From a virus, in the UHGV virus genome UHGV-0349718: DNA of 13,399 nucleotides. The stretch is one strand, 5' to 3'. The notes beneath the pieces are model-generated. The model was not told the origin of the DNA, did no database searches, and worked only from the letters and a program-made list of their open reading frames with translations. The first letter of the stretch is position 1. Each line of letters begins with the position of its first letter. Positions 1 to 9,004 of the stretch are shown here, piece by piece. Position numbers and translations under genes: made by a program.

Positions 1-336
1 GCCACTACCTATTCTGAAACCCAGAATATGACGGTATTTGCTGATCACTTCATAGCTAATAAAGCTCAGAACTTTGAGGCTGTTGCACAATATCAGTTCG
101 ATTTTGGGCTGCGTCCGTCCGTTGCTTACCTGCAATCTAAAGGTAAGGATCTCGGAGTATGGGGCGATCAAGACTTAGTTAAATATGTTGATGTAGGCGC
201 AACCTATTACTTCAACAAAAATATGTCTACTTTCGTTGATTACAAAATCAACCTGCTTGACAAAAATGATTTCACCAGAGGTCTTGGTATAAACACCGAC
301 GATATTGTTGCTGTTGGTATGGTTTACCAGTTCTAA
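1..336 (+). CDS. Outer membrane general porin, C-terminal fragment (OmpC/OmpF/NmpC family); 5' end lies outside the window
   Basis: Frame 1 is open from position 1; translation ends ...[12 protein letters not shown], the aromatic C-terminal beta-strand typical of enterobacterial general porins. Sits convergent to Q, as the nmpC-type porin moron does in DLP12-like prophages. Confidence 0.8.
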
Positions 337-526: not shown

Positions 527-910
527 TCAATTACACCTGCCAACTTCAGGATCCATCTCAAGACGCACTCCCAATGCCATCAACATCCCCTCGACTATTC
601 CTTCGGCCTTCTGAAGTCTTTTGCCTATATATCCATCAGAACAATAATGCTTACGGGCCAGTGCCATAAACGTCATTCCTCTTACGTAATAATCCACCAG
701 CAAATCATGCAAATCACTGTCGTTCTTTTTCAGGCGAGCCATACACCCACAAATAACCATTGCATCATCATCACTACATTGCGGACGTGATTTAACCTTT
801 GGTGGAATAAGCCCCTTGAATCCGGCGGCAATAGATGGCCAGGTAACATCCTCGTGGTTATTTGCCACCCATGCCCCCCAACGCTCAAGAACCATCTGAA
901 TATCACGCAT
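527..910 (-). CDS. Late-gene antitermination protein Q (phage 82 / QuuD-like family)
   Basis: 127-aa ORF starting [14 protein letters not shown]... with Cys-rich core ([16 protein letters not shown]) typical of Q antiterminators; ATG at 910 overlaps the stop of the upstream gene by 1 nt. Confidence 0.8.
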
Positions 911-3440: not shown

Positions 3441-4265
3441 TCAGAATGTCAGTTTGTCACTGGATTTACCGAATTTGTCAGACATGGCTCCCAGGCCAGC
3501 CAGGACATCGACCTGTCGCTGTCGCCCACCTCCGGGAGCGGCTGGCTGTTGCCAGAAGTCTTCGAAGTGACGATCGGGTCCAAAGAACGTCGCTGCCTGC
3601 TTCACGAACTGTGTGCCGGTATTTCCTGTAGCACGTACCCAAGCGGCATAACGTCTCACACCATCAAGCATGGTCTCCGGTTTTATTCCCTCCCTGAGAC
3701 GGGCTTTCCAGGCTTTGAAGGCTGCCGACTTGGAATTACCACCAGCACGTTTGGGATATTCCTGCCAGGCCTGTTCAAATTCTGGTGAATATTCCTGTCG
3801 GGCAGAGCGCGCTGGTGCAGACGCGTCAGCGGATGCGCCAATTGTTGGTTCATTGACTGGTTCTTTGACTGGTTCAAAAGAGTGACTGGTTCTGGGTGAA
3901 TCTCCTGCACTACCCCCTAGTGCAACTCCTGCACTACCTAGTGAATCTGCTGCACTAGGTAGTGAATTATTTGCACTACCCCCTGGTGAATCTTTTACAC
4001 CATCAAGGCGAAGGAGATAAATATTGCTCGAATTCCCTTTTTCACCTTTCCGGGAAACTTTTTTTACCAGCCCGGACTCGCAAAGCGCTGCGATATGATT
4101 CATCACAGAACGTTTACTGATTTCGCACTGATCAGCGATATGCTGGTAACTTGGCCAGCACTCCCCCTGATCGCTGGCATTATCCGCCAGCTTAACCAGA
4201 ACAAGTTTTCGCAATGGATTCCCCACACGAATTTTCATCGCTTTAACCATCAGCTCCATGCTCAT
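3441..4265 (-). CDS. Phage replication initiation protein (O-like; N-terminal winged-HTH replication domain, low-complexity linker, conserved C-terminal domain)
   Basis: N-terminus NPLRKLVLVKLADNASDQGECWPSYQHIADQCEISKRSVMNHIAALCESGLV resembles HTH replication-initiator domains; sits immediately upstream of the loader and helicase; iteron-like repeats lie inside the linker-coding part. GGAGGT 5 nt upstream of the ATG. Confidence 0.7.
   Translation of the reverse strand: MSMELMVKAMKIRVGNPLRKLVLVKLADNASDQGECWPSYQHIADQCEISKRSVMNHIAALCESGLVKKVSRKGEKGNSSNIYLLRLDGVKDSPGGSANNSLPSAADSLGSAGVALGGSAGDSPRTSHSFEPVKEPVNEPTIGASADASAPARSARQEYSPEFEQAWQEYPKRAGGNSKSAAFKAWKARLREGIKPETMLDGVRRYAAWVRATGNTGTQFVKQAATFFGPDRHFEDFWQQPAAPGGGRQRQVDVLAGLGAMSDKFGKSSDKLTF
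3853..3994. repeat. Iteron-like direct and inverted repeats inside the initiator gene (candidate phage origin of replication)
   Basis: TGACTGGTTC three times (3854, 3866, 3883); TGCACTA(C/G) four times (3906, 3930, 3951, 3973); GTGAAT four times; perfect 12-bp inverted repeat CACTACCTAGTG (3932-3943) / CACTAGGTAGTG (3953-3964); moderately AT-rich stretch at 4011-4070. Confidence 0.6.
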
Positions 4266-5425: not shown

Positions 5426-5450
5426 GCCGGGCCACTGCCCGGCTTTTTTT
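5426..5450 (+). terminator. GC-rich hairpin with plus-strand T-tail (intrinsic terminator oriented against the surrounding operon)
   Basis: GCCGGGC-cact-GCCCGGC (5426-5443) followed by TTTTTTT (5444-5450) on the plus strand; abuts the stop codon of the minus-strand Rha-like gene. Confidence 0.5.
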
Positions 5451-6163
5451 CACCGCTGCCAACCAATAACCTGAAATAACCCCATTTTCGGGTGATACCA
5501 GCGAGTCCCTCGCGGTTCTGCTTCCTCCATAACCCGATAAAAAGCAGCCATAAACGGTTCCACAGCAACAATTGCGCGACGTGATAACAATCCATCCGGT
5601 GTCATAAACTCGTGAGTATCGGTAGGAATTTGATAAGCGTTCACCAGATTGCGGCATTTATCATCTGACAAACCGGTTTTCGCTTTCAGTTGGCGATATC
5701 CGGCATAGCCCTCACGAACGGTGCCCTTTTTAATTTGCTCGACTGTTTCGGCAACATGGCTGACTTTTTCTTCCACCTGAGTGATCCGTTTCTGTTGGCG
5801 AACGGCTTCAAGAGCCATCGCGGCAACCATTTCGATTTCGCTCATTGGCTTACGGATCTGTTCTTCCAGTTCGCGCCAGCGATCTACCAGGCGGGCTGTG
5901 AATTCGGGACAAAGCCGTGCGACGACAATGATGCTGTCGCGTTTGCCTCGTTCACCTTCGAAAAGATAATGCTTACTTTTTTGAGTTAAACCTAACCCAT
6001 TGATATTTTCAGAAATCCCCATTGGGGGAAGCTGAATAATCCTTCGTTCAGCAAGGCGCTCAATGGATTGTTTCACTTTGTCATGGCGGCTGCCCACCAG
6101 CTCTGCGATTTCAACGCTGGTCATGGATGCTTTGCCGTTAAAAATTGCGGTGTTCACTGCCAT
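5450..6163 (-). CDS. Phage regulatory protein, Rha-like (putative)
   Basis: N-terminal ...SMTSVEIAELVGSRHDKVKQSIERL... resembles the Rha family motif. Start uncertain: ATG at 6163 sits directly after AAGGAG; the ORF-track start is 6199. Confidence 0.5.
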   Translation of the reverse strand: MAVNTAIFNGKASMTSVEIAELVGSRHDKVKQSIERLAERRIIQLPPMGISENINGLGLTQKSKHYLFEGERGKRDSIIVVARLCPEFTARLVDRWRELEEQIRKPMSEIEMVAAMALEAVRQQKRITQVEEKVSHVAETVEQIKKGTVREGYAGYRQLKAKTGLSDDKCRNLVNAYQIPTDTHEFMTPDGLLSRRAIVAVEPFMAAFYRVMEEAEPRGTRWYHPKMGLFQVIGWQR

Positions 6164-6276
6164 CTCCTTACGGATAAATTCTTTTAAGATTCCGCACATT
6201 CGTACTTGTTGGTGCCGAACCTTCCTTCAGTTATCTTTTTGATCCCTATAAACAAAAGAACCAAAGGAGGTTCGAC

Positions 6277-6357
6277 ATGTCACAAAAAAAAACGATATTC
6301 CTGTTTTTCCTATTACAGCCTGGCAGGCTGGACCATTGCCCGGTTATGGTGCGCTAG
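6277..6357 (+). CDS. Small ORF (26 aa, MSQKKTIFLFFLLQPGRLDHCPVMVR) with a near-perfect Shine-Dalgarno, antisense to the leftward operon
   Basis: AAAGGAGGT at 6262-6270, 6 nt before the ATG at 6277; hydrophobic core; too short for the ORF track. Confidence 0.35.
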   Translation: MSQKKTIFLFFLLQPGRLDHCPVMVR

Positions 6358-6560
6358 CATTAAAATTCCAGTACCTGACTTCCCCTATGCAACCACTGGA
6401 TTCAGCACAAGAAACTCAGTTCTTCGCGCTTACTCCCGAAATGACTGAGACTTTGATCTCCGATCTGCGCCGACATATTGAGACGCTGAAAAAATCCGGT
6501 ATTCACAGCCCACAAGAAAACAGGCATTAATCGAAAAAACGGTTGCCGCATAATTTCTTG

Positions 6561-6590
6561 AAAAGCGTCGCGCACTGGCGCTTTTCATTT
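6561..6590. terminator. Candidate bidirectional intrinsic terminator (tR1-like downstream of cro, and end of a plus-strand unit)
   Basis: Hairpin GCGTCG-cgcac-TGGCGC (6565-6581) flanked by AAAA upstream and TTTT downstream, giving a U-tail on either strand. Confidence 0.45.
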
Positions 6591-6614
6591 CTCTACGATC
6601 AACAAGCATGCACC

Positions 6615-6857
6615 TCACTCCTCCCCCGTGTGCGCTAAGCTTGGGTGTGGGAAAAGCTCTGGTAGATCTGGACGAAATTCATACGATTGGATCTTTCCGT
6701 CGACAGCTGCAACCAATAACGGCACAAATTCGGGTGAAATCTTGTTCTTGCAGTTAAGCCAATCACAGACTGTTGATTGAGCCTTTCCGCATCGCTTGGC
6801 TAAGGCTTGTTGGCTCCCAAGAATCTCAATGGCTTTTTCTATAGCTTTATGTTTCAT
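6615..6857 (-). CDS. cro: Cro-like HTH transcriptional regulator (80 aa)
   Basis: HTH motif ...GSQQALAKRCGKAQSTVCDWLN...; divergent from the CI-like repressor; ATG at 6857 with AGGAG 8 nt upstream (track ORF starts further upstream at 6929). Confidence 0.7.
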   Translation of the reverse strand: MKHKAIEKAIEILGSQQALAKRCGKAQSTVCDWLNCKNKISPEFVPLLVAAVDGKIQSYEFRPDLPELFPHPSLAHTGEE

Positions 6858-6976
6858 AATCGCATCTCCTATTGACGACATATTATCAATAGGTAAATCG
6901 ATATTCAACGTTAAACCTAGAAGTTTCATCGGAAAGCCGATAAACTGCCCAACATAGAGAGGAGAGGAAGATCACA
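6858..6976. promoter_or_regulatory. Divergent cI-cro control region (OR-like): operator palindrome and PR-like promoter
   Basis: Palindrome CCTATTGA-N10-TCAATAGG (6868-6893). On the minus strand, -35 TTGAAT (6908-6903), 17-nt spacer, -10 TAATAT (6885-6880), overlapping the palindrome. Strong SD GGAGAGGAAG precedes the cI ATG at 6977. Confidence 0.6.
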
Positions 6977-7669
6977 ATGACATTTTCAGAACGACTTGAT
7001 TTAGCTATGCGCAACGCCAAATTTACGCAAGGCAGGCTGGCCAAAGAAGTAGGTATGGCCCAGTCAAGCGTCAATCAATTACTTAACAAAGCCAACGGTT
7101 CCAGGAAAACAGTTGAAATAGCAAAAGTTTTGGGCGTTAACCCGGAATGGCTCGCATCTGGTGTCGGTCCAATGGAAATCGAGACCTCTGCAGACTCACA
7201 CCAAATACGTAACATTTCAGAAGACAGGATTACTGATTCGTATGTCGTGGATGTTTTAGACATCAGATACAGTTGCGGGCCTGGTAGTTATAACTCTGAT
7301 TTTCCAGACATTGTCAGATCTATAGCGATAGAACCAGGATACGCATCAAGAGTTTTTGGCGGCAGACCAGCATCAGCAATCAAAGCAATAAACGCCCACG
7401 GCGACAGCATGAAAGGCACAATAAACCCTGAGGACTTGGTGTTTGTTGACGTATCAGTTCGCTCATTTAATGGCGATGGTATATACGCTTTTACATACTC
7501 TGGAACATCGCACATCAAAAGGCTTCAAAAAATCAAAGACACCCTAACAGTGATCTCAGACAATCCAGCTTACAAAGATTGGGCTATCGAACAAGATGAC
7601 TTCGAGCAACTTCACATTGACGGAAAAGTAATCGTAAGTTGGCCTATGACGCTACACCGTTTCGCATAA
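6977..7669 (+). CDS. cI: CI-type prophage repressor (N-terminal HTH, C-terminal LexA-like S24 autopeptidase domain)
   Basis: N-terminal HTH (...FTQGRLAKEVGMAQSSVNQLL...); C-terminal Ser in AHGDSMKG and Lys in SHIKRL, the S24 catalytic dyad pattern; divergent to cro. Confidence 0.9.
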   Translation: MTFSERLDLAMRNAKFTQGRLAKEVGMAQSSVNQLLNKANGSRKTVEIAKVLGVNPEWLASGVGPMEIETSADSHQIRNISEDRITDSYVVDVLDIRYSCGPGSYNSDFPDIVRSIAIEPGYASRVFGGRPASAIKAINAHGDSMKGTINPEDLVFVDVSVRSFNGDGIYAFTYSGTSHIKRLQKIKDTLTVISDNPAYKDWAIEQDDFEQLHIDGKVIVSWPMTLHRFA

Positions 7670-7692: not shown

Positions 7693-7717
7693 CCCACTCC
7701 ACGAGTGGGTTTTTTTT
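7693..7717 (+). terminator. Rho-independent terminator after cI
   Basis: CCCACTC-cac-GAGTGGG hairpin (7693-7709) followed by T8 (7710-7717). Confidence 0.75.
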
Positions 7718-7805: not shown

Positions 7806-8225
7806 ATGAGGAAAATGTCATCGTATATGGGGTTACCAACAAATCAACACGATGCTCTTGAGAATATTCAACTCTTAGTAGGGGCTGGAGCACTACTATA
7901 TAGCAGCAATAACCCTGAGTTAATTGAACTTGCCAGCTCCATCCTGGCTGTAACTCAAAAATATAGCCTCACCGCGTCGCGTTCATGCAAACAAAATTTA
8001 GCCATTAATTCACAGAATCGGATTCGCACCCAACGCGAAGCCTGCGGCTTAACAACCGCCGAACTCGCCAGGCTGCTCGATCTCGATGAAGAAATCATCA
8101 TCCAGTGGGAAAGCGGAGAGTATGAACCAACTATCAGTATGCTTATCCCACTGGCAAATGTTCTTGGTTGCGACCCGATGTGGCTGTTAACCGGTAAACC
8201 AACAGCTGGAGATACTTGCGCATGA
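7806..8225 (+). CDS. HTH-XRE family DNA-binding protein (139 aa; C-terminal HTH, N-terminal region unrecognised)
   Basis: C-terminal ...IRTQREACGLTTAELARLLDLDEEIIIQWESGEYEPTISMLIPLANVLGCDPMWLLTG is a classic XRE-type HTH. First gene after the PL-like promoter; alternative start at ATG 7815. Confidence 0.65.
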   Translation: MRKMSSYMGLPTNQHDALENIQLLVGAGALLYSSNNPELIELASSILAVTQKYSLTASRSCKQNLAINSQNRIRTQREACGLTTAELARLLDLDEEIIIQWESGEYEPTISMLIPLANVLGCDPMWLLTGKPTAGDTCA

Positions 8226-8785: not shown

Positions 8786-9004
8786 ATGGAGACATCAGCA
8801 CGAAATAAAATGCAGAATGAGCCTGAGCAGGGGGGGGTAATACACGAAAAAGTAAGAGTGTTGCTAACCATTGAAAATGGGAAAGTAATTTACTCAAAAC
8901 ATCTGTTGGATAATGAATTCGTTGGCTGCATGGATACATTTCTGTGGATGGCAAAAAGAGCTGGCTACACGATTATTCCACCAGCAAAGGAGCAAACATT
9001 ATGA
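8786..9004 (+). CDS. Hypothetical protein (72 aa)
   Basis: ATG at 8786 with GGGAGA 7 nt upstream (alternative ATG at 8771); its stop overlaps the next start (ATGA). Confidence 0.45.
   Translation: METSARNKMQNEPEQGGVIHEKVRVLLTIENGKVIYSKHLLDNEFVGCMDTFLWMAKRAGYTIIPPAKEQTL

Follow-up and report, generated by a model that had tools for sequence, protein, structure and literature searches.

A bssS-family gene with a homopolymer frameshift, probably a young pseudogene, in the cro-Rha interval of a phiP27-like Escherichia coli prophage

What does a lambdoid prophage carry downstream of cro, the place of cII (PF05269) in lambda, when no cII is recognized there? The question was raised by the virus genome UHGV-0349718, of which a stretch of 13,399 nt (hereafter the window) was analysed. 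The early region is phiP27-like, and 73% of the window aligns with phage phiP27 at 95% identity. Between two minus-strand genes, one of Rha type and one cro-like, lies an interval of about 450 nt. The preliminary description, made from the letters alone, saw in it a strongly initiated 26-aa hydrophobic ORF on the plus strand, a further open frame and a bidirectional terminator, and suggested that the circuit establishing lysogeny may be unconventional. The features on which our own reading is based are as follows.

5450-6163, minus strand: Rha-family regulator to the left of the interval, the gene that follows in the rightward early operon (PF09669; RefSeq annotation of near-identical copies)
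6165-6614: interval of about 450 nt between the two minus-strand genes
6165-6279: conserved upstream module, made of the Rha 5' leader (minus strand) and the moron leader, Shine-Dalgarno (SD) sequence and ATG (plus strand)
6263-6271, plus strand: SD sequence AAAGGAGGT, read from the sequence
6277-6279, plus strand: ATG, true start codon of the bssS-family gene; copies with seven A are annotated from the same ATG (WP_001422786, WP_063102809)
6277-6357, plus strand: out-of-frame product of the A9 allele, 26 codons (5 native and 21 missense residues, then a stop)
6284-6292, plus strand: run of nine A (A9), the frameshift site, codons 3-6
6291-6530, plus strand: remaining part of the bssS-family gene, read in the -1 frame as NDIPVFPITAWQ...ENRH, with the stop TAA at 6528-6530
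6559-6597, plus strand: intrinsic terminator of the bssS-family gene (12-bp stem, 5-nt loop, tail ATTTCTCTACG)
6615-6857, minus strand: Cro-like regulator (YdaS-type HTH) to the right of the interval, facing the bssS-family gene in convergent orientation (PF15943, E=7e-15; phrog_35, transcriptional repressor)
6977-7669, plus strand: cI repressor, S24/LexA-type

What had been seen in the interval was, but for one detail of the hairpin, indeed there. The SD sequence precedes ATG 6277 by 5 nt (6 nt if counted after GGAGG), and this is a genuine strong start. The SD sequence is enclosed by a small palindrome, GAACC-AAAGGA-GGTTC (6258-6273), which the terminator scan scored on the minus strand as weakly terminator-like; its folding energy was about -7 kcal/mol, and shuffled sequences did equally well. 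The ORF at 6277-6357 encodes MSQKKTIFLFFLLQPGRLDHCPVMVR (26 aa), and the open frame to 6530 is present as well. The absence of a credible minus-strand gene also stood: between 6165 and 6620 stops occur in all three minus frames, and no minus frame stays open across the relatives of the plus-strand gene. The longest ORFs that could be drawn mechanically on that strand were of 57 and 62 aa, both with GTG starts and both antisense to the bssS-family gene, and no minus-strand ORF with CII similarity was found in the gap. An RNA family search of 6000-7000 returned no match at E<=1.

The reading of the 26-aa ORF and the downstream frame as separate features did not survive. The two frames are one register apart and meet at the A9 run. 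Only a run of seven A (A7) brings them into one frame, or in principle A4 or A10. When the run was set to A7, translation from ATG 6277 read through an 83-aa protein, MSQKNDIPVFPITAWQ...ENRH, which matched the Pfam family BssS (PF13991) with 56.1 bits (gathering cutoff 27; E=4e-15) over profile positions 1-70 of 72 and aligned end to end with phrog_10846 (positions 1-83 of 83, E=4e-51). In the window itself an intact single ORF of about 83-84 aa is absent; from the ATG only 26 codons are read before a stop, and it is the -1 frame that carries the domain. A comparison of the interval across related prophages had been proposed with the preliminary description, and in it the near-identical A7 copies read one continuous 83-aa bssS-family gene. 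Since the stub and the downstream frame are two halves of one gene broken by A9, the interval does not hold a new small protein, nor is it evidence of an unusual lysogeny circuit.

The gene belongs to a well-populated family. All 16 full-length database homologues are of 83 aa and read in a single frame. Among the related loci in IMG/VR, 41 of 42 read a complete ORF of 82-83 aa from the homologous start (ATG; GTG in one) behind an SD sequence, and the sole exception was an A8 allele of the same E. coli lineage as the window. A search of genome contigs for related loci gave pattern matches and no confirmed relative; the relatives came from the viral collection. The median pairwise dN/dS was 0.11 (69 pairs among 16 distinct gene sequences) and the third codon positions varied most in the alignment (60/44/80 for the three positions), which shows purifying selection in the family. 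When the interval was searched by megablast against complete E. coli genomes, 13 carried the whole of it at 98-99.8% identity, each with the annotation 'bssS family protein'. The RefSeq proteins WP_063102809 and WP_001422786 (83 aa; prophages of porcine and bovine E. coli strains ETEC1734, ETEC1738 and cq9) are the same gene in the same place. Their 450-nt interval is 98-99.8% identical to that of the window, with the same SD sequence, ATG, stop and terminator, but with A7 they are in frame, whereas A9 puts the window's copy out of frame. The gene is thus already annotated in RefSeq. Further away, the relatives in phrog_10846 include gp37 of Salmonella phage F1055 (the window protein is 71% identical to F1055_0037). 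Like the window gene, these are small genes of the early or immunity region transcribed against their neighbours; unlike it, they often adjoin cI in convergent orientation instead of lying between cro and Rha, and none has a long A-run.

The relation to BssS of E. coli K-12 is a remote one. The two proteins share the Pfam family PF13991 and a similar size (84 aa in K-12, 83 aa here), and K-12 bssS has an A7 run too, in codons 2-4. K-12 bssS is chromosomal and adjoins dinI, whereas the window gene lies in a prophage immunity region. The A7-corrected protein scored only 23.7 bits against the NCBIfam equivalog NF008958, which represents the K-12 BssS orthologue and has a cutoff of 125, and BLASTP gave no alignment with K-12 BssS. 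Because of this weak equivalog score and the missing alignment, the window gene is a distant paralogue within the BssS family and not the orthologue of K-12 BssS.

Is the run of nine A an accident of this copy? The tract lengths were taken directly from the DNA of near-identical phiP27-like prophages of E. coli. When the interval was aligned, the A-run was the only length difference within the gene: the window has A9, ETEC1732 and UMNF18 have A8, and cq9 has A7. The sources of the tract lengths read from DNA were as follows.

A6, one source: GCA_043238265.1
A7, eight sources: cq9, ETEC1734, ETEC1738, four IMG/VR prophages and one metagenome contig
A8, nine sources: ETEC1732, UMNF18, ETEC1749, ETEC4085, rl0044, E94, one IMG/VR prophage and two metagenome contigs
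A9, the window and two sources: GCA_011803545.1 and GCA_026547945.1

In GCA_026547945.1 (L064) the 451-nt gap is 100% identical to the window, A9 included. As a control, a T8 run 1.4 kb away (7710-7717) was scored in the same assemblies; all seven scorable loci, from six assemblies whose A-runs measure 6, 8 or 9, had exactly 8 nt. Since T8 stayed constant where the A-run differed, the length variation belongs to this tract in particular and does not reflect a general noisiness of homopolymers.

The frequency of the alleles was estimated by exact-sequence look-ups of their protein products in a collection of 15 billion sequences, which count sequences and carry no phylogeny. A sister allele (LASP/MAETL) was found with A7 on more than 300 contigs, and look-ups of its frameshift products in that collection returned none. 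The window's allele (LTSP/MTETL) was found with A8 on about 580 contigs, as gene calls of 93, 105 and 56 aa (268, 143 and 170, respectively), with A7 on 15, with A9 on 4 and with A6 on 1. The in-frame alleles A10 and A4 were never seen in these look-ups. No contig encoded the expected A9 products of 80, 78, 64 and 47 aa when these were looked up exactly; the A9 assemblies were located through a PGAP-style product of 77 aa (P0028), which is carried on four contigs. The database entries of 105, 96 and 93 aa named 'bssS family protein' owe their lengths to start codons misassigned in the A8 allele; the gene truly begins at ATG 6277. Thus polymorphism of tract length among close relatives (A6 to A9) was observed, but recurrent ON/OFF switching across lineages was not seen in the exact-sequence look-ups, where A7 is nearly universal in one lineage and A8 by far predominates in the other. 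Relatives from outside this E. coli lineage have interrupted runs (CAA AAA GAC, AAG AAA GAC or AAA CAA GAC). The A7 run arose by a single G to A change that turned GAC into AAC (Asp5 to Asn), and the long run is limited to this lineage; it is therefore not a conserved recoding signal.

The surroundings of the gene are those of a passenger. The related phages of phiP27 type each carry some antisense cargo gene in this slot. A further 74 E. coli genomes share with the window only the 115 nt of positions 6165-6279, which run from the start of Rha to the ATG, at 98-99% identity. In the one of these that was inspected (L004), an unrelated 97-aa ORF of phrog_4753 starts from the same ATG behind the same SD sequence. 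In phiP27, the slot between cro and Rha/Ant is occupied by L13 (223 aa), also in antisense orientation. Both L13 and the phrog_4753 ORF, which is found in SE11-type prophages, therefore share the slot and the orientation of the window gene, but the proteins are unrelated. The phrog_4753 ORF also shares the 115-nt upstream module and ATG of the window cassette, whereas the region upstream of L13 showed no homology to that cassette beyond the Rha start. Three unrelated cargo genes thus occupy the cro-Rha slot of related prophages, independently of the flanking phage genes, and the bssS-family gene has a plus-strand terminator hairpin of its own (6559-6587). On this comparison of sequences, it behaves as a moron, that is, as an exchangeable passenger gene set against the direction of the early operon.

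The hairpin lies midway between the convergent stops of the bssS-family gene (6530) and cro (6615). On the plus strand its folding energy was -15.3 kcal/mol (z -4.0; matched by none of 200 shuffles), it is followed by the tail AUUUCUCU and it passed the terminator scan. On the minus strand the energy was -10.6 kcal/mol (z -2.2), the tail AAGAAAUUAU is not U-rich and the scan reported nothing. The hairpin that had been described with U-runs on both strands is therefore real, but what had been taken for two U-runs is the set of four A-U pairs that form the base of the stem, and the hairpin is a good terminator for the plus strand only, not convincingly bidirectional. Partial termination on the minus strand is possible. 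Such a hairpin would terminate the passenger gene yet let PR transcripts run on to Rha and the replication genes, which is what the phage would need if, as it appears, it has no N-type antiterminator here. No consensus sigma-70 promoter was found upstream of 6277 by a scan that is insensitive, as it also misses PR and PRM; a looser scan gave the weak candidates TTGGTG-17-TATCTT (6209-6237) and TATAAA (6247). Autonomous transcription of the gene, with expression from its own promoter in the lysogen, is therefore an assumption on our part.

Taken together, the interval is in our opinion most probably an antisense bssS-family moron cassette that was disrupted by slippage and is now a young pseudogene. 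A passenger cassette of the lysogenic-conversion type would have entered a phiP27-like lambdoid prophage of E. coli, in antisense orientation in the space separating cro from the Rha gene, bringing the strong SD sequence and ATG (6263-6279), the 83-codon BssS-family gene and its own plus-strand terminator (6559-6597). The change of GAC to AAC would have produced the A7 run by accident, a single A7-to-A8 frameshift would have become fixed in a heavily sampled lineage of porcine and bovine E. coli, and rare secondary slips, A9 among them, would have followed. This order of mutations is suggested by the exact-sequence counts. Under normal decoding, the A9 allele would yield a 26-aa junk peptide and leave the BssS domain in the -1 frame, and the A8 and A9 alleles are probably without function. 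In every A8 and A9 copy the remainder of the ORF is undamaged, as is expected for a very young pseudogene; the same fact also fits a gene that is still in use.

Several other explanations of the run were weighed against this one. It may be a contingency locus, in which slipped-strand changes of the A-run are selected and switch the prophage bssS paralogue in ETEC populations of porcine and bovine E. coli, with A7 as ON, A6, A8 and A9 as OFF, and A9 leaky through a -1 slip on A_AAA_AAA near the strong SD sequence, giving an 84-aa product. In classical phase-variable genes the repeat stands at the 5' end right after the start. The run here has the same position, immediately behind the strong start; four tract lengths occur in intervals that are otherwise 99.3-100% identical, the T8 run keeps its length in those assemblies, and the rest of the ORF is intact in every allele. 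Furthermore, ETEC1732 (A8) and ETEC1734 (A7) differ in the run despite near-identical genomes, a difference that could reflect either fast switching or an assembly error. Against a switch, the sister lineage keeps A7 on its more than 300 contigs and its expected frameshift products are absent from the collection, the dominance of A8 (about 580 against 15, 4 and 1) looks like one inherited mutation with rare slips, the in-frame lengths A10 and A4 do not occur, and the run is absent from all other members of the family. Switching at phase-variation rates is also not known for tracts of 7-9 A in mismatch-repair-proficient E. coli. We judge the polymorphism to be the decay of a dead gene and a switch to be improbable; if real, it would be a rare example in E. 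coli of a prophage cargo gene under simple-sequence phase variation, but the population data do not favour it. Only slightly less credit can be given to an error of sequencing or assembly, with A9 as a miscall for a true A7 (and an intact gene) or a true A8. Homopolymers are the classic sites of indel errors and no complete E. coli genome in the collection matches the window exactly, but A9 recurs on the four P0028 contigs, which belong to NCBI assemblies and of which two were read (GCA_026547945.1 and GCA_011803545.1), the other runs (T8, T7 and A7) are invariant among the assemblies, and a true A8 would still leave the gene out of frame.

Far less probable than either is programmed recoding, in which a frameshift, by -1 ribosomal or by transcriptional slippage, would be the normal mode of expression and yield both a short peptide and the BssS-like protein. 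The A_AAA_AAA heptamer (6285-6291; codons CAA AAA AAA) formally agrees with X_XXY_YYZ in the zero frame. The related C_AAA_AAA near a start codon gave 25-60% of -1 ribosomal frameshifting in over-expressing E. coli (PMC1851650), and nine A or T is the run length where slippage begins to matter and where selection against runs appears in many bacterial genomes (PMC1088944). However, neither the shift site nor the two-frame arrangement is conserved among the homologues, 41 of the 42 viral loci and all 16 full-length proteins being read in one frame. A_AAA_AAA is far less shift-prone in E. coli than A_AAA_AAG (PMC5009743), and E. coli RNA polymerase slips weakly on A runs and undetectably below A8 (PMC6260861). 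No stimulatory structure was found by folding just 3' of the run, and A8, the commonest allele, would require the opposite (+1) shift. Because the A-run is not conserved in the family, the sequence comparison makes programmed recoding very unlikely. Least credible of all is the proposal with which the question began, that a free-standing 26-aa hydrophobic peptide and a following ORF replace cII in an unconventional lysogeny circuit. The strong SD sequence with its ATG and the gap without a minus-strand gene are in its favour, as is the lack of any Pfam Phage_CII match among the nine window proteins scanned (the genes between positions 3441 and 8225). But the 26-aa peptide exists only in the frameshift alleles A6 and A9, in the intact A7 copies, which contradict the model, the ATG leads without a break into the downstream frame, a BssS-family domain, and the slot holds unrelated cargo in sister phages. 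Nor is the window devoid of CII-like annotation: although Phage_CII itself was not matched, an HTH protein at 7806-8225 (plus strand), just downstream of cI, matches phrog_4836 (E=8e-51), labelled 'CII-like regulator' in PHROGs. In Pfam this protein shows only HTH_3-type domains, and the label is an annotation of putative function; the match nonetheless weakens the claim that nothing CII-like is encoded in the window.

Even as a pseudogene, the A9 allele need not be null, because C_AAA_AAA is shifted so efficiently in E. coli (PMC1851650). By analogy, low-level protein at most may be made, either by a -1 ribosomal slip on A_AAA_AAA or by RNA polymerase adding an A to the mRNA; either slip would yield MSQKKNDIPV..., a protein of 84 aa. 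A product in the BssS frame would be marked by the junction peptide of MSQKKNDIPVFPITAWQAGPLPGYGALALK. Slippage-rescued homopolymer alleles (C_AAA_AAA in pDEST17, A9 in Thermus dnaX, and Citrobacter tssM) likewise have the A-run near the 5' end and a -1 frame that restores the protein. The present run differs from them in that it is not conserved and that its commonest allele needs the opposite shift.

As to what the intact protein may do, K-12 BssS (YceP) is known by phenotypes only, namely biofilm formation, AI-2 and indole signalling and mouse colonisation resistance (PMC3646849). These phenotypes are not transferable because the window protein is too distant, and a role in biofilm or signalling would be an extension of the family name. 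A PDB sequence search found no related solved structure. The AlphaFold2 model (mean pLDDT 78) shows three strands and one long helix at the C terminus; Foldseek of this model against PDB returned nothing significant, the best hits being COMM-domain proteins (E 0.15-0.5), a predicted resemblance that is a weak lead. A role in anti-phage defence was also considered; PADLOC gave no match for the BssS-like protein, the alternative 97-aa cargo or phiP27 L13.

The main value of these results is that of a correction: behind an apparent orphan micro-ORF and a 'missing cII' stands a passenger gene, known and annotated before, that a homopolymer has put out of frame. For the phiP27-like prophages as a group, the interval between cro and Rha is a recurrent slot for antisense cargo genes.

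The reading frame of the bssS-like gene, a plus-strand passenger gene of the BssS family that starts at ATG 6277 between the cro-like gene and the Rha gene, depends on the length of an early A-run (window 6284-6292), where A7 is the in-frame allele and A8 and A9 are frameshift alleles. This bears on several public protein records:

L001 (ETEC1732) 7048-7365: the 105-aa record WP_235718092 and its equivalents

The 'bssS family protein' records of 105 aa (WP_235718092), 96 aa and 93 aa are artefacts that stem from the A8 allele. Their annotated ORFs were stretched upstream to start codons (GTG, TTG or others) that lack a Shine-Dalgarno (SD) sequence. Gene callers that retained the true ATG gave a 56-aa out-of-frame product (170 contigs). 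The run is A8 in ETEC1732 and A7 in ETEC1734 (L005), two genomes of one Belgian study whose total lengths are 13 bp apart and whose prophage coordinates are equal within 1 bp; the A-run either slipped very recently or was assembled differently in the two. The chromosomal bssS of E. coli K-12 also begins with an A7 run, in codons 2-4 (ATG GAA AAA AAT; L066, 8956-8940, minus strand). It shares this early run with the prophage gene, yet the two proteins are too far apart for BLASTP alignment.

The SD of the bssS-like gene lies inside an inverted repeat:

6258-6273, both strands: palindrome GAACC-AAAGGA-GGTTC

On the minus strand the palindrome is followed by UUUUGUUUAU, and a terminator scan scored it as terminator-like on this strand, about 95 nt ahead of the Rha start. 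The hairpin was weak by folding (-6.9 kcal/mol, z -0.55).

Two elements were recognized between cro and cI, the operator-like repeat overlapping the promoter, and a further gene was found directly 3' of cI, where the first gene of a PL operon would sit:

6868-6893: operator-like inverted repeat CCTATTGA-N10-TCAATAGG
6880-6908, minus strand: PR-like promoter (-35 TTGAAT, 17 nt, extended -10 TG-n-TAATAT)
7806-8225, plus strand: gene of an HTH protein

The product of the latter matched the PHROGs profile phrog_4836, labelled 'CII-like regulator' (E=8e-51), and its Pfam matches were HTH_3, HTH_19 and HTH_31 only. Further along, the alignment with L001, the closest copy in a complete genome, covers both flanks of a 51-nt stretch (8787-8837) but leaves the stretch itself unaligned; this stretch terminates in a G8 run (8830-8837). 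The left end of the window was assigned to a porin from its alignment to L001 (porin annotated at 180-1277) and from L063 (Porin_1):

1-336, plus strand: OmpC-type porin gene, 3' end
527-910, minus strand: Q antiterminator gene, adjoining the porin gene in opposite orientation

The cro-Rha slot itself holds other antisense cargo in related phages, and its upstream part is widely shared:

L012 (phage phiP27) 7104-7775, antisense: L13, a 223-aa gene of unknown function in the same slot
6165-6279: module of 115 nt that takes in the Rha leader, the SD and the ATG, common to 87 E. coli genomes

L13 had no PADLOC match. The match was restricted to the module in 74 of the 87 genomes, and in the one of these whose cargo was read, the SE11-type prophage (L004, 2501-2906), a 97-aa ORF of phrog_4753 (function unknown), unrelated to the bssS-like gene, begins at the same ATG. 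This shared ATG and the module-only matches therefore place a mosaic junction exactly at the start codon.
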